This document shows, piece by piece, positions 4,345 through 52,725 of a stretch of DNA of 64,000 nucleotides. The stretch lies in the NCBI GenBank assembly GCA_000004985.1, contig GG738870.1. One strand, given 5' to 3'. This DNA is from Naegleria gruberi. Its lineage: Eukaryota. Below the pieces are notes generated by a model. It saw only the letters and a program-made list of their open reading frames with translations. It made no database searches and was not told where the DNA came from. How positions within the stretch are numbered: the first letter of the stretch is position 1; each line of letters begins with the position of its first letter. Position numbers and translations under genes: made by a program.

Positions 4345-7095
4345 TTATTTATTTCTCTTTTGTTTCTTATTCTTGTTTTGAGCAGGAGCCTTAGTTGTTG
4401 GCTTTTGTTTTCTCTTCTTGTTACCTTGTTCTGGATTCTTTTCTCTTTGGAGTTCTTCCTTTTCTTGTTGGAGAAGTTCGTCTTCATCGTCGTCCATCAA
4501 TTGGGCAACTTCGTCTCTATTTGCCTTGTCAGAAACTGTTGTGATATCAAAGCCATAACCTTCAGTTTCACCTGGCATGGTATCTTCATCGTCACTTTCT
4601 TGTTGTTGCAAAAGTTCCATGACTTGCTCGTCGTCCATTTCATTGAATGGATCTTCATCGTCACTAAAGTTGTCATCCATGGCAGCAAGGAATTCTTCCT
4701 CTCTTCCCTTTGAAAGTTTCTTCTTTTCTTCCCTTGCTTCTCTTTCCTTTTCGAGTTCATCCTTTCTCTTGAACTTTTCAACCATAAACTTGTGGAAGAA
4801 TCGTTCATCAGCCTTAACTAATTCGTCTGGCAACTCAGCAAAGTCCTTAGTGTTAACACCGGAAGCTCCTCTGATAACTCTTTCAGCAGCTTGAGCGGCC
4901 TTTGACTTGGAGAACAAACCTGAACCCTTTTCCTTCATGGCCTTCTTAGAAACTGGCTTGAACATCATCTTGTCAATGAAGGCAGTGGTTGAGAAGTCAA
5001 CAATTGGGTTACCCTTGTAGAGAGTTTTACCTGATTGAGAAAAGATGTGATCAACGAATTCAGCAACACTTGGATGGAAATGATGCTTGAGAATGTTGAG
5101 TTCCCATAAACCAGTTGTCAAGGCATTGGCAGCTTCTGGTTTTGGAGTTGTTGGGTCATAATCACTGCTTTCTGTGAATGGATTAGTACCTCTGGCCTTT
5201 TGTGAAGCAACAGTCTTCTTCTTTGAATCAACTTGCTTTTCAGATCCTTCAGATGTCTTCTTTGGAGCAAATCCATCGATAACAATTTCATTACCAACAA
5301 TTTTAACAGATTCATCCTTTGTTGAGAGAACTCTTGTTTCAACCTTCTTGGCTTCAGCTTCTTCTTCATCATCAAAATCTTCGAATGCTTCTTCTTCATC
5401 ATCTTCCATATCTTTAGAACCATCGGATTTCTTAGGTGTCAAAAAGTTCTTTTGTTGAATCATACTCAAATGAAGACCAGGTTTAACCTTAAGAATTTGA
5501 TCAATAACCATGAGAACAGCAGCACTGTAACCTGGATTTGAACAAGTGAAACAACTTTGTAAAATTCTCTTACAGAAAGCAGCAACTCTCTTGAGATTCA
5601 AATCTTCACGAACTGTTTCATAGACAACCAACAACAAGTTTTGAACCTTGAAACCAGTATGTCCTTCATCAAGTAATTTATCGTAAAGCAAGGTGTAGAA
5701 ACGTGTCAGCGTTCGTTCATCATTGGAAATAAAAGCAATAGAGTAAATTAATTTACAGGCATTAACAGCAGTAAGCAATGGAGTAATTCTGGCAATCTTG
5801 AAAAGTAAATTGAGGGTATCTTCATCAGGTGAGAACATTGTCTTGGTATGTTTTAAACTCTTGAACATGCCTGAAAGCAAAGATCCAAGGAAGTTAGTAT
5901 TTGTAAGATTTTGAGTCTTGTCTTCCTTCTTCTTCTTCTTTTGAGATTTAACCAAATCCAAATATTCACCCTTTAAAACATCAACACAACTCTTCAAAAC
6001 AAAATCGGCAACATCAGCATCGTGTTCAGGTGTATAAGTCATGTTTGTTAAGAAAGATGCAGCGAAACCTCTCTTTGAAGCATCCATCTTGTTATTTAAC
6101 AAAAATTCACAAACTGATTTACACAAGAACATCTTGTCCAATGAGGTAACCAAGTGAGGATTGTTTTCAACTCGAGAATTGACGAGAGCAGTCAAATAGT
6201 ACAATGCTCTGGCATTAATAGAATTCTTTGGATCAGCAAACTTTGTGACCAAGAGAACAATTAAAGTATCTCTCCTTTCTGGACTAGCCTTAATCAAGTC
6301 ACGAATATTTCTCATAGTTCTTATTGTCACAACATCCAAAGCATTGGCTCTTTCTTTGATATTTTCAGCCAAAACTTCATTAATGAATGTTTGATACTTC
6401 TTCTTGAGTAATTCTTCAAAATACCATGCTCCTAAAACGCTTCCAACTTGTTGCATATTTTCCTTCTTCTTTTTCTTGTTATTTAAACGTTCAAAATGAT
6501 GAACAGCTTGATATATTGTTGACATAGATATTGATGAATTGTTTGATTTTTCTCTTTCTTTAAAATCAAAAAGTGTTCTGTGTGTAAGAAGTAAATTTTG
6601 GAACAAATCTGTAGAAGTCTTGACAGCAAGTTCTGCAGCTCTGTGATTCTTAGGGTGATTACAAATTGTAATCAATTCATCAATGTGGTTCAGTCTCAAA
6701 ATTGGCTTTTCTTGTACAAGCAAGGACAAGGAAGCAATTTTATCCATGATTGTACCCTTTTCAATGAATTCCTTTTCGAATTGATCTGCTTCCGATTCGT
6801 GATTTGTTAAAGCATTTTGATGTTCCTTCTTTGCAATACTATATAATTCTTGTACTTGTAAAAGTGTAAGTGTTTTCTTTTCATCAATTTCAATATTAGA
6901 ATCGGCAATTAATTGTTGTAAATTTAACTCATCCTTTCTCAACTGTGTGGCCCAAGTTGGTTCTGTTCTTTTCTTTTGAGAAGTTTCATCTTCTTGTTCT
7001 TCCTCCTTCTTGATGGATTCATCCACAACTTCCTCTTCCTTCTCCACGGAACCACCAAATAAATCTTCTGGTTTTGTTTCTTGTGATTTGCTCAT
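4345..7095 (-). CDS. CBF/Mak21 (Noc1, CEBPZ-like) nucleolar pre-60S biogenesis protein, single exon, ~916 aa
   Basis: Long helical-repeat protein with a CBF-domain-like RFYTLLYDKLLD motif, acidic Asp/Glu stretches and a KKRK-rich C-terminus. The first ATG (MSKSQETKPEDLF) is 33 nt inside the TTG-started ORF-track model. Confidence 0.55.
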   Translation of the reverse strand: MSKSQETKPEDLFGGSVEKEEEVVDESIKKEEEQEDETSQKKRTEPTWATQLRKDELNLQQLIADSNIEIDEKKTLTLLQVQELYSIAKKEHQNALTNHESEADQFEKEFIEKGTIMDKIASLSLLVQEKPILRLNHIDELITICNHPKNHRAAELAVKTSTDLFQNLLLTHRTLFDFKEREKSNNSSISMSTIYQAVHHFERLNNKKKKKENMQQVGSVLGAWYFEELLKKKYQTFINEVLAENIKERANALDVVTIRTMRNIRDLIKASPERRDTLIVLLVTKFADPKNSINARALYYLTALVNSRVENNPHLVTSLDKMFLCKSVCEFLLNNKMDASKRGFAASFLTNMTYTPEHDADVADFVLKSCVDVLKGEYLDLVKSQKKKKKEDKTQNLTNTNFLGSLLSGMFKSLKHTKTMFSPDEDTLNLLFKIARITPLLTAVNACKLIYSIAFISNDERTLTRFYTLLYDKLLDEGHTGFKVQNLLLVVYETVREDLNLKRVAAFCKRILQSCFTCSNPGYSAAVLMVIDQILKVKPGLHLSMIQQKNFLTPKKSDGSKDMEDDEEEAFEDFDDEEEAEAKKVETRVLSTKDESVKIVGNEIVIDGFAPKKTSEGSEKQVDSKKKTVASQKARGTNPFTESSDYDPTTPKPEAANALTTGLWELNILKHHFHPSVAEFVDHIFSQSGKTLYKGNPIVDFSTTAFIDKMMFKPVSKKAMKEKGSGLFSKSKAAQAAERVIRGASGVNTKDFAELPDELVKADERFFHKFMVEKFKRKDELEKEREAREEKKKLSKGREEEFLAAMDDNFSDDEDPFNEMDDEQVMELLQQQESDDEDTMPGETEGYGFDITTVSDKANRDEVAQLMDDDEDELLQQEKEELQREKNPEQGNKKRKQKPTTKAPAQNKNKKQKRNK

Positions 7096-7411
7096 TTTTT
7101 TTGAGTGTTGTTTTTTCAAAAATTTCAAAAAAATATTGAATGTTGGATGTTGATGATTAATATTAATATTGATATTATTAATAATTGATGAAGGTATTAA
7201 AAAATACTATTGAATCAATTGACCGTATTATTCATAGTATTGTTGGGCAATATTAGAAATTAAAATTTTTAATATTTTAGAATGATTGGGCTTGTTGTGA
7301 TAACGGATGAGAGTAAATGGCGCCAATCTTTTTTCTTCCGTTACGATTTTTTCATCTTAAAAAAAACGAGTAATTTAAGCGATAGAGAAGACCATCATCA
7401 TTAACTTCACC

Positions 7412-8542
7412 ATGCGGCAAGATAAGGAAAGGTATGAGTTTATGATGGAGGATAGAAAACCAATTTATGAACGAGTTGGGCAAATGCAATTGGAGAGGTA
7501 CGAAAAGGAAAAATTAAGAAAGCAACAACAACACGAGGAAGAGAGAAAAAAACTGAGAAGTGCTCCGGCCATAAGCAGAGAATCACAAAGAATTGTTGCT
7601 GCTATGAAAAATAGGGTTCCAATCACTGATAGAGTAAATAGTATTGATGATCAAACATTAATGGAAAAGGAGAAGGCAAAAAGAAGATTTATGGAAGTTA
7701 AAAAGGAGGAGCTTGAAGATTGTACATTCCAACCACAAGTTAATCCAGTCTCTAAGAAGATTGTACAATCAAAAACAAAGCAACAATCATTCTTTGAAAG
7801 GCAAAAGATGTATGAAGCAAGAGAAAAGATGAAACAGGAATACATGTCAAAAACAGAGCAAGCTCAATATAATTTCAAACCATCTATTTCAAAAACATCG
7901 AATGATATTTGTAAGAAGAATCTAAATAGAGCAGGTACAATGGAAGATATTTATGATAGGCTCACTAACAGAGACAAGAAGAGAATGGATCACATCAAAA
8001 CAGAGATTGCAGAACAATACTATTCTAAATTTTCATTTCATCCAACGATTAATCAAGTTTCAAATGTAATAGCTGCTCCAACCGACTTGGAAGAGCTTGT
8101 CAATAATTCCAAAAGTAAGAGAATCAAAGAAGAACTCACTCTTAAAGTTATGGAAAAAGAAAACTATAGTTTCCAACCAACCCTAGTATCACAAAATGAT
8201 AAATATCTTCAAGACAGAAAACCTTATGCAGTAATCAACGAGCAAGAAAAATTCTTGAAACAAAAAGAAATTAAGAGAGCTAAGGCACTTATAGAATTAG
8301 AGTGTGAACAACTCCAAGAATGTACATTCCAACCAACAATTAATGAAGGAAAGCCTTCACTAGAAGCAGATACCCCTATAGTAATTAAGGGTCTAGGTAG
8401 ACATATTGAAAGAAGAGAACGAGCCAAGAGAATTGAAGAAGAAAGGCGAGAAAGAAACGAAGAAGTATTCAGACCTAAAGTATATTCTAAGAAAGTGGGA
8501 GGAGCCACAATTATGGAACCATTTTCATTTAACTACAACTAG
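7412..8542 (+). CDS. Coiled-coil protein with five degenerate [CYF][TSN]F[QKH]P-x-[IVL][NS] repeats, 376 aa
   Basis: Repeats EDCTFQPQVN, YNFKPSIS, FSFHPTIN, YSFQPTLV, ECTFQPTIN spaced through a K/E-rich helical protein. Family not identified. Confidence 0.55.
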   Translation: MRQDKERYEFMMEDRKPIYERVGQMQLERYEKEKLRKQQQHEEERKKLRSAPAISRESQRIVAAMKNRVPITDRVNSIDDQTLMEKEKAKRRFMEVKKEELEDCTFQPQVNPVSKKIVQSKTKQQSFFERQKMYEAREKMKQEYMSKTEQAQYNFKPSISKTSNDICKKNLNRAGTMEDIYDRLTNRDKKRMDHIKTEIAEQYYSKFSFHPTINQVSNVIAAPTDLEELVNNSKSKRIKEELTLKVMEKENYSFQPTLVSQNDKYLQDRKPYAVINEQEKFLKQKEIKRAKALIELECEQLQECTFQPTINEGKPSLEADTPIVIKGLGRHIERRERAKRIEEERRERNEEVFRPKVYSKKVGGATIMEPFSFNYN

Positions 8543-8578
8543 ATTTAATCACAATTCTTTTACTAAATTTGTAATTTA

Positions 8579-9805
8579 TTAAAAGTTAGTGCCTTTAAAA
8601 ACAGCAAAATTCTTAGTTTGAGAATATAAATCCTCTAATTGTTGATAACTAGCAATTACTGAATCTGAAATTGAATGTCTATCACTTTTGTCGTCCTTAA
8701 AGTCAGGTGAGATTCTTCTGATCGTTTGCTTCTTTTCCTTACTGTTATAATTCCTAGGGTATTCATAGTCATTATTTAGAGACACGTCACTCTTTGAATC
8801 ATCATCAAAATTATCAAAACTTGGTGGAATATTTCTAGTGTTTGGCTTTTCTCGCTCCTTATATTTACTACTTGGTTCTGAATATTTGAATTCTTTCAAG
8901 TCCTTTTCTCGTGACTCATATTTTTGTTCATATCTTGGTTTATCCATATTATGCAATTGGTTTACTCTACCACTGCCGCTAGTTGGTTGTTTCATGGAGG
9001 ACAATCCATTACTATCAGCCAAAAAACCAGCACTTGCTCGAAGCAATGAAAAGGTGTTTTGGTCTGTCAATTTACAAATATCAATATCAGAAGAAAATGG
9101 AGGAATGTTTGTCTTTAAACATAAATCAACCTTTTCCTTAACGGAATCGGAATAAGGTTGACGAGAGAGAACTGACTCGGTCATATCAATAGATCTCATA
9201 TTTTTCTTCAGTTGATCTATTTTCGTATCTAGTGGTTCTGTCATATCATTTTCGATATCTTGAAGTGTTCTTAGGGAGTCCTGAAGTAATGATTCCAATC
9301 TTTGTTTCATCATTCCATATGTTTGCATTATTTGTTTTTCCATCATTTCCTTACTTTGTCTAACATCTTCTCTAACAATATTGAAATGTTCCAACGAGGT
9401 TGTATTTTGTTTCTTGAGGTGAGTTAATTTTTGTTGAAGGTATTCTCTTCGTTTTGATTCCATCATGTTATTATTATTACTAAGACTTGGAGAATGGGTT
9501 GGAGATACAGAGGATTCATAGCTTGGTGGTAGTTCATTAGAGTACATTGATTTTCTCGTCCTTGATGCTGGATTTGGTTCAGAGGACATTGGTGCATAAC
9601 TTGAATAGGTTTTTGATGATGGAGGACCAATATCAAAATCAGGGGTTAGAGAAGAATATCTTGGAGGAGGGGACTTTCTTCCCCCACCAGATCTTGACGA
9701 CCTTTGATTATTTGTAGAAGAAGAAAATTGTTCATTCATTCCATTATTATAATTATATTGTTGGCCTTGATGGTGTCGTTCCATCATGCGATCATTGTTG
9801 AACAT
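8579..9805 (-). CDS. Ser/Asn/Pro-rich low-complexity protein with a central coiled coil, ~408 aa
   Basis: ORF-track start at 9841 is a TTG. The first ATG gives MFNNDRMMERHH.... Confidence 0.45.
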   Translation of the reverse strand: MFNNDRMMERHHQGQQYNYNNGMNEQFSSSTNNQRSSRSGGGRKSPPPRYSSLTPDFDIGPPSSKTYSSYAPMSSEPNPASRTRKSMYSNELPPSYESSVSPTHSPSLSNNNNMMESKRREYLQQKLTHLKKQNTTSLEHFNIVREDVRQSKEMMEKQIMQTYGMMKQRLESLLQDSLRTLQDIENDMTEPLDTKIDQLKKNMRSIDMTESVLSRQPYSDSVKEKVDLCLKTNIPPFSSDIDICKLTDQNTFSLLRASAGFLADSNGLSSMKQPTSGSGRVNQLHNMDKPRYEQKYESREKDLKEFKYSEPSSKYKEREKPNTRNIPPSFDNFDDDSKSDVSLNNDYEYPRNYNSKEKKQTIRRISPDFKDDKSDRHSISDSVIASYQQLEDLYSQTKNFAVFKGTNF

Positions 9806-9950
9806 TATTTTTGAAAAAATTGTACAAGCAAAAGGCGCCAAAATTGTTTTTTGATTCTGAATATTAGCGCTTTCAATGAAGATACAAAATGAATTTACAG
9901 AGTAATTGGCGCCAACTGTTTCATTGATTCACAGTATTTTCCATCTTAAA

Positions 9951-11043
9951 ATGAATGAGCAAAACTCTTCCACAACATCCGCTCCAGAGGAAAGACAAAG
10001 AGGTTTGAGCAATGGAGAAGCAAGCTCTTCAATCTTCCAAACACCATCAAGAAACAACAATGAGGAAGGTTTTTCTGCCTCAACACCCTTCTCGGCTTTT
10101 AGAACAGCTAAGAAGGAGGAAGAACAATCATCATCACAAGGAGGAAATGAAGTATCAGCAGTTAAGGCTAAATATACTGAAAAAACACCATCAGCAGTGA
10201 AATCAGAAACTAGAAATTTGTTGAAGAGAATGGATACAGATGATGCTCTGGAAGCCTTTGAACAATTGTACACTTTGAGTTTGTTTGGTAAGTATCAAGG
10301 TGATCGTTTAAAATTAATAACAATCACACAAACAGCCAGTCACAGACAGCAAATGCTCGATACTGGAGTTATCAGTTCCCTCACTTTGGCATTAAAAACA
10401 AAGCAAAATCGTATCAGGGAATATTGTGCAAGGACTCTTCAATTATTTGCTCAAGACGGAGAAGAGAGTTGTATCGCAATGAAGAGACTCAATATGTGTA
10501 ATTCTAGTTTGGAAATTATTTCTAAAGTTGATGATTTGAATGTAAGAATAACTGTAGTTGGATTAATTTATTGGCTCTGTCAAAATCGTATGTAAATAAT
10601 TATTAGATATATTCAAAATTTCCCATACAATAGCACATTGTAAAAAAGAATTTGTTGATATGGGAACTGAATCCTACATTAAGGAAATTTCAAATAAGAA
10701 TAAGGATCCAATGCTTGCTAAATATTTGAATTATGTATTACACAGTCTCTCCAGTAGAGTGAAAAGTAGAGAAGAAATGTTGAATGAGATTCTTCTCCAA
10801 CAAAAGGAAATGCAAGCTTTGGAACAAGAAAAGAAACAAGACTTTATCCCATATGTAAATCCATCTCCAAGACACTTTTTCAATATTTCTAAAACCCCTT
10901 CTTCCTCTCCAATGACAACCCCAAGAAAAAAGTTAGATTTCTCCACTCCTTCAAAAGCTAACACATCCTTTTCTCAAACTGAAAAATCCACAACCCTAAG
11001 ATCTGAATTGGTTTACGAATCTGATGAATTTGGAGGTCAATAA
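9951..11043 (+). CDS. Hypothetical protein, 2 exons (~9951-10587 and 10634-11043; 46-nt GTATGT...AG intron)
   Basis: Exon 1 (...VGLIYWLCQN) joins in frame to the 10660 ORF (PHCKKEFVDMGTESYIK...) across a GTATGT...caatag intron. First ATG is at 9951 (MNEQNSS). Confidence 0.5.
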
Positions 11044-52518: not shown

Positions 52519-52588
52519 AGGGAGATAGTTCAGTGGTAGAACATGGGATTGTGGTTTTAAGATCAGGGTCCGATTCCCTGTCTTCCTA
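52519..52588 (+). tRNA. tRNA-like Pol III gene with an atypical anticodon arm (possible tRNA-His GUG-like loop or a pseudogene), followed by a T6 terminator
   Basis: Acceptor AGGGAGA/TCTTCCT (one G-U), D-arm GTTC-AGTGGTA-GAAC, T-arm CAGGG-TCCGATT-CCCTG, then T6 at 52593-52598. The 20-nt segment between the D and T arms (TGGGATTGTGGTTTTAAGAT) does not form a canonical 5-bp anticodon stem. Confidence 0.4.
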
Positions 52589-52725
52589 CACCTTTTTTAA
52601 CACAGCTTTTTTGCTTCTTTACACAAGTGTAGTTTTTTGTCCTTTTTTTAAGTTTATTCTAAATGGTTTTTTGCCTTAATTCTAAGATTAATTTAGTTGG
52701 GTTTATTATTAATAAATAATTGATT

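Follow-up and report, generated by a model that had tools for sequence, protein, structure and literature searches.

Putative E2F-family binding sites in two adjacent promoter regions of Naegleria gruberi

The canonical E2F/DP site of animal and plant cell-cycle promoters reads TTTSSCGC/TTTSGCGCSAAA; it is promoter-proximal and is often tandem or palindromic. RB is a classic E2F target, and tandem E2F sites are also found at the mammalian p107/RB1 and plant RBR promoters. In the CDE/CHR element recognized by the DREAM complex, the GC-rich, E2F-like part sits close to where cell-cycle genes start transcription and is accompanied by a second block at fixed spacing, the CHR TTYGAA 4 nt downstream. 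Among protists, TGGCGCCA has been described as an "E2F" motif over-represented upstream of Cryptosporidium parvum genes, including genes other than those of replication, such as ribosomal protein genes (Oberstaller et al. 2013, PMC3734150), and in the RblA/E2F/DP system of Dictyostelium discoideum, RB represses S-phase and mitotic genes, mitotic kinesins among them (Strasser et al. 2012, PMC3386910). We found no description of E2F sites in heteroloboseans (Discoba) in the literature. Gene-specific transcriptional control is, to our knowledge, almost uncharted in Naegleria, the brain-eating N. fowleri included, and the same scarcity holds for Discoba outside the highly derived trypanosomatids.

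We analyzed a 64,000-nucleotide stretch of N. gruberi DNA (the window), in which an initial annotation had singled out three copies of a palindromic GC-rich motif as rare for DNA so rich in A and T. Their rarity was borne out: GGCGCC has three matches in the window against 0.40 expected from dinucleotide-preserving shuffles, which supplied the chance expectation for all motif counts, and none of 100 shuffles reached three. By the same measure, TGGCGCCA matches twice (0.06 expected), and GGCGCCAA/TTGGCGCC matches four times over the three sites (0.14 expected). The three GGCGCC motifs are real and very unlikely to be present by chance. None lies inside an open reading frame, and GGCGCC is confined to two intergenic regions, the other ~35 genes of the window being devoid of a site.

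Site A (GTAAATGGCGCCAATCTT, positions 7313 to 7330, minus strand) lies in a 316-bp gap between NAEGRDRAFT_79902 (4345 to 7095, minus strand), which encodes a 916-aa protein of the CBF/Mak21 (Noc1-like ribosome-biogenesis) family, and NAEGRDRAFT_79903 (7412 to 8542, plus strand), which encodes a 376-aa coiled-coil protein with CTFxPxIN repeats. Its core GGCGCC occupies 7319 to 7324, within a stretch, AAATGGCGCCAATCT, found exactly where it had been annotated (7315 to 7329), and the minus strand reads ATTGGCGCC, a TTSSCGS sequence. The NAEGRDRAFT_79903 ATG at 7412 is 88 bp downstream of the core, and the divergent CBF/Mak21 ATG (7095) is 224 bp away. The other two sites share, as annotated, a single 145-bp gap (9806 to 9950) between NAEGRDRAFT_68031 (8579 to 9805, minus strand; 408 aa without a recognized domain) and an ARM-repeat gene (9951 to 11043, plus strand; ~348 aa after removal of a 46-bp intron inferred at 10588 to 10633); their annotated positions, 9831 to 9846 and 9904 to 9918, were off by one. 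Site B (AAAAGGCGCCAAAATT, 9830 to 9845, minus strand; core at 9834 to 9839) reads TTTTGGCGCC on the minus strand and lies 29 bp upstream of the minus-strand ATG of NAEGRDRAFT_68031 at 9805. Site C (TAATTGGCGCCAACTG, 9903 to 9918, not assigned to a strand; core at 9908 to 9913) contains the palindrome TTGGCGCCAA, which presents TTSSCGS on both strands, and lies 38 bp upstream of the ARM-repeat gene ATG (9951). The distance from the core to the downstream ATG, estimated earlier at ~30 to 100 bp, is 29 to 88 bp at all three sites. The E2F-like TTTSSCGC core that had been proposed is present in full at site B only, as TTTGGCGC, sites A and C having TTGGCGC; TTGGCGCC is readable at all three.

None of the four flanking genes is a canonical E2F target: one encodes a ribosome-biogenesis factor and three encode uncharacterized proteins. 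Searching Pfam and PDB at lenient settings assigned no function to the flanking genes, although the ARM-repeat gene gave weak ARMC5/ARMC9-type matches. The NAEGRDRAFT_79903 protein belongs to a widespread, nameless family of 961 relatives without a Pfam entry; a profile search of 1.8 billion proteins, followed by Pfam, cluster-name, and PDB profile searches, suggested no function, and two metagenome scans found no further orthologues. Rfam and tRNA scans detected no noncoding RNA under the three sites.

We compared the orthologous loci, 21 kb each, of N. fowleri (L001), N. lovaniensis (L002), and Willaertia magna (L003), and found a GC-core element at the corresponding places in their promoters. 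Site A corresponds to TTTCGCGCC in N. fowleri (L001 9961), to CCCGCC in N. lovaniensis (L002 9898), and to TTTTCGCGC in W. magna (L003 9932), the aligned promoter sequences being GGCGCCAAT in N. gruberi, TTTCGCGCCATT in N. fowleri, CCCGCCATT in N. lovaniensis, and TTTTCGCGC in W. magna; the N. lovaniensis counterpart, ATACCCGCC, is without the T-run. Site C corresponds to TGGCGCCAAA in N. lovaniensis (L002 12600), TGGCGGCAA in N. fowleri (L001 12701), and TTGGCGCGCAAA in W. magna (L003 13096). In W. magna, the CBF ortholog has been relocated, and a TTTTTGGCGCC of its own precedes its ATG by 70 bp. Hexamers of the form SGCGCS number one or two per orthologous locus, all in these promoters. The cores vary among GGCGCC, CGCGCC, CCCGCC, GGCGGC, and GGCGCGC, but the variation always stays inside TTSSCGS, changes falling only at the degenerate (S) positions. 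Judged from these alignments, the conserved unit is therefore an E2F-type half-site, not a CCAAT box and not the GGCGCC palindrome that the initial annotation had emphasized, in place of which orthologues read CGCGCC, CCCGCC, GGCGGC, or CGCGC.

The annotation had also asked whether the motif is equally frequent in coding DNA. Since N. gruberi itself is covered by the 64-kb window, enrichment was determined in the sister species, the analysis extending over ~190 kb in all. In six related loci totaling 125 kb, the upstream-proximal part, within 120 bp of an ATG, makes up 4.1%. Of 23 TTSSCGS sites, 13 were upstream-proximal (p = 7e-13), and the density was 2.5 per kb there against 0.086 per kb in genes, a ~30-fold difference. 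In the three loci whose choice did not depend on this finding, 4 of 9 sites were upstream-proximal (p = 4e-4). GCGCCA was the top upstream-enriched hexamer that is not A rich, with 10 of its 16 occurrences within 120 bp of ATGs (p = 9e-11). The flanks are also polar: among 23 upstream GC cores in eight sequences, TT-core or core-AA arrangements outnumbered reversed ones 25 to 6 (p = 9e-4). The element thus matches the TTTSSCGC pattern, in which a G/C core containing CG is preceded by a T-run or, equivalently, followed by an A-run. Together, these comparisons indicate that the motifs are a real cis-regulatory element.

The N. gruberi gene set includes E2F, DP, a DEL/E2F7-8-like protein, and RB; their sequences (NgruE2F, NgruDP, NgruDEL, and NgruRB) accompany Medina et al. 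2016 (PMC4862756) as supplementary material. In the protein database, E2F is P0010 (PF02319 and PF16421) and RB is P0006. The search for E2F/DP homologues that had been proposed found both, with the DNA-contacting RRxYD motif intact: the E2F DNA-binding domain aligns to chain A of PDB 1CF7 (E = 7e-25; RRIYD), and that of DP aligns to chain B (E = 3e-28; RRRVYD). The RB promoter, picked beforehand as a test, has a tandem pair of E2F-like sites in each of the four heterolobosean RB loci examined, 15 to 150 bp upstream of the true ATG. The pairs are at 9955/9970 in W. magna (L006), 652/671 in an environmental Naegleria-like contig (L007), 9088/9108 in Acrasis kona (L009), and 5076/5138 in a second environmental contig (L010). 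For the E2F gene itself, no site was found in the 1.3 kb upstream in N. lovaniensis, and in W. magna a site falls within what is annotated as coding sequence. In W. magna and L007 alike, the gene diverging from the RB promoter encodes a kinesin.

We conclude that the three motifs are probably promoter-proximal E2F-family binding sites with the consensus TTSSCGS, here (T)TTGGCGCC. The E2F-like reading in the initial annotation gains from the orthologue substitutions within TTSSCGS, the flank polarity, the upstream concentration, the tandem RB sites, and the presence of E2F, DP, DEL, and RB. Such sites are expected biology, yet apparently new to this group. The E2F-DP heterodimer of N. gruberi would contact the CG core through its winged-helix RRxYD motifs, with polarity set by the T-run flank, and the two-domain DEL/E2F7-8-like protein is a possible further binder of the core. 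Promoter A contains a second conserved block, CGTTACGATT (7339 to 7348, plus strand), 14 nt downstream of the GC core, a spacing that all three Naegleria species keep exactly; a second factor may bind this block, or the block may lie near the transcription start. An initiator-like block, TTTTTCATCTTAAAA (7348 to 7362, plus strand), follows 29 nt downstream of core A, at what is the ancestral start codon position in N. fowleri, and is common to promoter C in exact register, where the corresponding block, TTTTCCATCTTAAAATG (9937 to 9953, plus strand), runs into the start codon at 9951; the initiator-like TCATCTT is 29 nt downstream of both cores. A factor bound ~30 bp upstream of an initiator-like element would be able to activate or repress the adjacent pairs NAEGRDRAFT_79902/79903 and NAEGRDRAFT_68031/ARM, and repression by the RB homologue may work via the conserved motif at the E2F C terminus and end when CDK activity releases RB. 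Binding itself, whether regulation is positive or negative, its timing in the cell cycle, and the transcription start position belong to what we infer here; a mitotic-synchrony RNA-seq data set has been described (bioRxiv 10.1101/2024.01.08.573270).

Conservation and upstream enrichment indicate function and leave the identity of the factor aside. It is conceivable that a different, possibly lineage-specific factor that recognizes a GC core with A/T flanks binds these functional elements in place of E2F/DP; no flanking gene is a classic E2F target, and the second conserved block CGTTACGATT at fixed spacing implies that further factors act at this promoter. We regard this as unlikely, since both the TT/AA polarity and the substitutions observed (GGCGCC, CGCGCC, CCCGCC, GGCGGG, and GCCGCC) match E2F exactly, tandem copies recur at the RB promoters of four taxa, and E2F and DP are encoded with unchanged DNA-contact motifs. 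A general core-promoter or bidirectional-promoter element, which positions the start or excludes nucleosomes and is not gene specific, would fit the fixed distance of ~29 nt to the initiator-like TCATCTT in promoters A and C, as well as the location of most sites 20 to 100 bp from ATGs, several of them in divergent gene pairs. However, such an element would be far commoner than the motif seen: only two intergenic regions among those serving the ~40 genes of the window carry it, and most promoters in the related loci are also without it, making this explanation quite improbable.

A further reading takes the GC core to be incidental to CCAAT boxes bound by NF-Y or to NFI-like TTGGC/GCCAA half-sites. 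The initial annotation had noted an embedded CCAAT/ATTGG, and indeed CCAAT is present in site A, ATTGG in site C, and TTGGC/GCCAA half-sites accompany them. The invariant CCAAT pentamer of an NF-Y site is, however, missing at site B (GCGCCAAAA), and none of the site A counterparts in N. fowleri, N. lovaniensis, and W. magna (GCGCCATTT, CCGCCATTT, and CGCGCTAAA) has it; CCAAT is found in only 2 of 4 orthologues of site C (compare GTGGCGCCAAAG and GTGGCGGCAAC). Since CCAAT/ATTGG is not conserved but the CG core is, NF-Y is not indicated. NFI, a metazoan family, requires TTGGC-N5-GCCAA, whereas the half-sites in TTGGCGCCAA overlap with zero spacing, and we consider the whole reading highly improbable. 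Equally improbable is that the motifs reflect chance or are a neutral, functionless by-product of local duplication of promoter DNA. Flank similarity exceeds that of shuffled controls for B versus C and for A versus C: sites B and C are 74 bp apart, with a flank similarity score of 44 against 29.5 +/- 5.3 in shuffles, and an alignment of promoters A and C keeps exact register for ~65 bp (repeat family D7). The three sites are independent only in part; local duplication may have given B and C, and perhaps A and C, a common origin, so that the three N. gruberi copies possibly derive from one or two ancestral copies and represent fewer independent events in this species. Tandem Repeats Finder did not confirm the B/C unit as a duplication. 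Against an absence of function stand the independent conservation in four species, retained even after gene relocation in W. magna, the strong concentration upstream of genes in loci picked independently, and the recurrence at RB promoters.

Should the E2F assignment hold, the heterolobosean RB-E2F regulon would be definable by a short motif that is easy to scan for; NAEGRDRAFT_79903, NAEGRDRAFT_68031, and the ARM-repeat gene would be nominated as proliferation linked; and the E2F site, 14-nt spacer, CGTTACGATT, and initiator-like block would form a compact module for regulated expression constructs. The paired sites at the RB promoters of four heterolobosean taxa would mean that RB autoregulation reaches into a third major supergroup of eukaryotes. 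More tentatively, and with some doubt on our part, heterolobosean RB-E2F could be wired as in animals and plants, RB autoregulation via paired sites included, with a regulon that in Naegleria goes beyond replication genes to Noc1/CBF and the CTFxPxIN family. The RB feedback loop and the E2F cis-code would then have been in place already in the last common ancestor shared with Discoba, and Noc1/CBF ribosome biogenesis and the CTFxPxIN-repeat coiled-coil proteins would be new proliferation- or mitosis-linked components.

Compared with the systems described above, the Naegleria promoters resemble CDE/CHR in combining a GC-rich, E2F-like element, which may lie close to the transcription start, with a second block at fixed spacing, but that block is CGTTACGATT at 14 nt from site A, not CHR. 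No TTYGAA was found 4 nt downstream of the core at sites A, B, and C, the nearest TTTGAA to core B (9810 to 9815) being 18 nt away, and on these sequence grounds we reject a CDE/CHR (DREAM) element. The C. parvum motif is the same 8-mer, and the genome of that protist is likewise compact and AT rich, with little space between genes; the motif was also identified computationally, and C. parvum encodes E2F/DP. The two organisms differ in lineage (Alveolata versus Discoba), in the distribution of the motif (pervasive over many expression clusters in C. parvum, sparse in Naegleria, with two intergenic regions in 64 kb), and in RB, of which C. parvum has no known homologue, whereas Naegleria has RB and heterolobosean RB promoters carry the sites. 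D. discoideum is, like Naegleria, a free-living amoeboid protist with one RB, one E2F, and one DP; its evidence is genetic and transcriptomic, that from Naegleria a comparison of cis-elements alone, and its repression of kinesins may be set beside the kinesin gene divergent from the RB promoter in W. magna and L007. Relative to canonical E2F sites, the preferred core is GGCGCC instead of CGCGC or GGCGGG, and the flanking genes of these putative, sequence-based sites concern ribosome biogenesis or are uncharacterized, in contrast to replication genes. In consensus, T-run polarity, and tandem or palindromic arrangement, and probably in promoter-proximal position, the Naegleria sites are like those of animals and plants, and the N. 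gruberi E2F and DP domains align to the chains of the E2F4-DP2-DNA structure (PDB 1CF7).

Direct reading of the region places site A (AAATGGCGCCAATCT) at 7315-7329, 88 bp upstream of the start codon at 7412, site B (AAAAGGCGCCAAAATT) at 9830-9845, 29 bp upstream of the minus-strand start codon at 9805, and site C (TAATTGGCGCCAACTG) at 9903-9918, 38 bp upstream of the start codon at 9951. The initial annotation had described a rare GGCGCC palindrome lying ~30-100 bp upstream of start codons; its three sequences and distances hold, as do its coordinates for site A, while those for B and C were off by one base. Long ORFs occupy ~72% of the window, and none contains any of the sites. GGCGCC occurs exactly 3 times in the 64-kb window versus 0.40 expected from dinucleotide-preserving shuffles, which bears out the claimed rarity; TGGCGCCA occurs twice (0.06 expected), and the four matches to GGCGCCAA/TTGGCGCC (0.14 expected) are at sites A, B, and C. 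The shuffles allow for the CpG depletion of the window (observed/expected of 0.41, compared to 0.85 for GpC), against which CpG-containing E2F-like cores stand out.

Site A separates NAEGRDRAFT_79902, a CBF/Mak21 (Noc1-like) protein gene, from the 376-aa ORF at 7412-8542, which is Naegleria gruberi NAEGRDRAFT_79903 (100% identity). Sites B and C lie between NAEGRDRAFT_68031, in which a domain search found no recognized domain, and the ARM-repeat gene at 9951, which has a single short intron. Upstream regions of the remaining ~35 window genes, including those for ribosomal protein S6, a Y-family DNA polymerase, kinases, an actin-like protein, acyl-CoA synthetase, and a GH47 mannosidase, carry no E2F-like site. 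The sole tRNA of the window is tRNA-His (GTG), at 52519-52589 on the plus strand.

We compared orthologous 21-kb loci from N. fowleri, N. lovaniensis, and Willaertia magna, in which orthology of all four flanking genes was confirmed by tblastn. SGCGCS hexamers number only 1 or 2 per locus, and every one falls within the orthologous promoters. Upstream of the 79903 orthologue, the site reads GGCGCCAATCTTTT in N. gruberi, TTTCGCGCCATTTT in N. fowleri, ATACCCGCCATTTT in N. lovaniensis, and TTTTCGCGCTAAAA in W. magna; in the 68031/ARM divergent gap, it reads TGGCGCCAAAG in N. lovaniensis, TGGCGGCAAC in N. fowleri, and TTGGCGCGCAAAC in W. magna. The W. magna CBF gene has relocated 7 kb away, with a TTTTTGGCGCC site of its own 70 bp before the ATG. 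Thus, the GC core varies by species yet remains within TTSSCGS, an E2F-type half-site consensus. Neither the perfect palindrome nor the CCAAT pentamer is conserved among the orthologous promoters of these three species, so that neither the palindromic GGCGCC proposed as the motif unit nor the embedded CCAAT/ATTGG is supported. From this comparative conservation, we conclude with high confidence that the element is functional.

Upstream enrichment, which the initial annotation had proposed to check genome-wide, was found in an unbiased hexamer count over six related loci (L001-L006; 125 kb with called genes), taking the 120 bp before each ATG as upstream. After A-rich words, GCGCCA is the most upstream-enriched hexamer (10/16 occurrences; p = 9e-11), followed by CGCCAA, GGCGCC, and CGCGCC. 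For TTSSCGS, 13 of 23 occurrences fall within the upstream-proximal 4.1% of sequence (p = 7e-13), a density of 2.5 per kb versus 0.086 per kb in genes; in L004-L006, loci picked for other reasons, the count is 4/9 (p = 4e-4). Flank polarity is that of E2F: across 23 upstream GC cores in 8 sequences, TT 5' of the core or AA 3' of it was seen 25 times and the reverse 6 times (p = 9e-4), so the T-run is not just AT-rich background. In the same six loci, AAAAAA is by far the top hexamer just before start codons (146/545 occurrences in 4% of sequence), and many genes have an A-run directly before the ATG. A possible E2F-like site at a DNA repair gene, TTTTGCCGC at L005 position 15211, is 45 bp upstream of a W. 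magna 6-O-methylguanine-DNA methyltransferase (MGMT-type) gene. In N. fowleri (TTTGGCGC; L001 14044) and N. lovaniensis (TTGGCGGG; L002 13868), the gene that follows the ARM gene is likewise preceded, at 23-25 bp from its ATG, by a conserved E2F-like site; its products (2115 and 1527 aa) match CCDC39 weakly. Three promoters in succession carry sites at this locus in both species; N. gruberi has a Kelch/BTB gene where they have this one.

The sites are embedded in a wider promoter architecture. A second block, CGTTACGATT, possibly bound by a second factor, follows the GC core at a spacing of exactly 14 nt in the three Naegleria species (window 7339-7348; L001 9984-9993; L002 9918-9927), and the similarly placed sequence in W. 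magna is AACGTTAAAG; AACGTT is itself enriched upstream of ATGs in the six related loci (8/41 occurrences within 120 bp). Sites A, B, and C have AGYAAWWGGCGCCAA in common, in the same orientation. The promoters containing sites A (7309-7373) and C (9898-9962) align in exact register over ~65 bp at an offset of 2589 bp, in the order AGAGTAAWTGGCGCCAA, 19-20 nt, TTTTYCATCTTAAAA, the last being initiator-like and 29 nt downstream of the core; this local alignment scores 48-58, versus 28.7 +/- 5.4 for shuffles. The register points to a grammar common to both promoters or to an ancient duplication of one of them, in either case with an initiator-like TCATCTT. Sites B and C are 74 bp apart, and their flanks resemble each other (score reached by 8/500 shuffles); the gap holding them is 71-79 bp in the other species, and the N. 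gruberi gap may therefore hold a diverged duplication. TRF called no tandem duplication there. In N. fowleri and N. lovaniensis, this gap holds two GC elements, the second being GCGGG at a distance of 10 nt.

The 79903 protein, in which coiled coil separates CTFxPxIN repeats, is a member of a family found widely among eukaryotes; with a threshold of E <= 1e-3, a profile search gave 961 relatives, one named for the jakobid Andalucia godoyi and none with a Pfam family, PDB relative, or informative name. It lacks an ~85-aa N-terminal extension of its orthologues that holds one further ECTFKPKING repeat. N. gruberi has CTTAAAAAAAACG (window 7348-7414) where the ancestral ATG stood, a position that in N. 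fowleri is 17 nt past CGTTACGATT, and the start has apparently moved to 7412.

RB is a classic E2F target, and heterolobosean RB loci were therefore examined as a test set chosen beforehand. True starts were located by tblastn and ORF reading in all loci obtainable (n = 4), and in 4/4 two tandem E2F-like sites lie shortly upstream: TTGGCGCC and TTTTGGCGCCAAA in W. magna (44 and 29 bp), TTCCCGCC and TTTTTTGGCGGGG in the environmental Naegleria-like contig L007 (about 20-40 bp), CCGCCAAAA and TTTTTGGCGCGG in Acrasis kona (about 95 and 70 bp), and TTCGCGC and TTTTTCGCGGG in environmental contig L010 (about 150 and 85 bp). Their cores vary among taxa, and every one fits the E2F consensus. RB is divergent from a kinesin gene (Kinesin and Microtub_bd domains) in W. 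magna (L006 7474-9793) and L007 (135-594); since the tandem sites lie in the gap common to both genes, the kinesin may be coregulated. Several annotations have RB gene models cut short at the N terminus (L006 10001-10575; L009 9183-9884; L007 693-1245): the start of N. gruberi RB (733 aa) corresponds to about residue 151 in W. magna, the A. kona model omits a first exon with its ATG at L009 9183, and first exons in metagenome contigs are annotated as separate "genes."

Both E2F and DP, whose homologues the initial annotation had proposed seeking, are encoded in N. gruberi. The E2F DNA-binding domain matches the E2F4 chain of PDB 1CF7 (E = 7e-25) with the DNA-contacting RRIYD intact, and that of DP matches the DP2 chain (E = 3e-28) with RRRVYD intact; in the protein database, E2F has E2F_TDP and CC-MB domains, and RB has both pocket domains. 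The E2F C terminus, DDFMFEMESGEGVSDLFL, resembles the RB-binding motif of human E2F1. Medina et al. 2016 (PMC4862756) give N. gruberi sequences in their supplements for E2F, DP, RB, and DEL, the last with two DNA-binding domains. E2F-type sites in Naegleria, well supported by the present comparisons, are to be expected from this gene repertoire.

Chance occurrence of the sites is ruled out by the cross-species data, and NF-Y/CCAAT, NFI, and CDE/CHR readings are ruled out on sequence grounds. The main rival holds that another factor with similar specificity binds the sites. Conservation of TTSSCGS with its pattern of degeneracy, flank polarity, the RB promoters, and the unaltered DNA-binding domains of the encoded factors all favor E2F, as the initial annotation had read the sites; on the other side, the 1.3 kb upstream of the N. 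lovaniensis E2F gene contain no site. In the W. magna E2F gene, a site falls within the called coding sequence. The most economical reading is that sites A, B, and C are probably bound by the E2F family, the identity of the factor being what we infer from these lines together. An E2F-DP heterodimer, or DEL, would recognize the CG core and T-run near the transcription start, and RB would impose repression through these candidate sites.

Our literature search found no description of E2F sites, nor of any defined promoter motif, for Naegleria; a 2026 preprint reports a JASPAR motif scan across Discoba in aggregate only. The putative sites are a useful starting point for work on how heteroloboseans regulate transcription. 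In Dictyostelium, RB/E2F control is already established (PMC3386910), and the E2F motif published for Cryptosporidium parvum (PMC3734150) is identical, as an 8-mer, to that of the N. gruberi sites.
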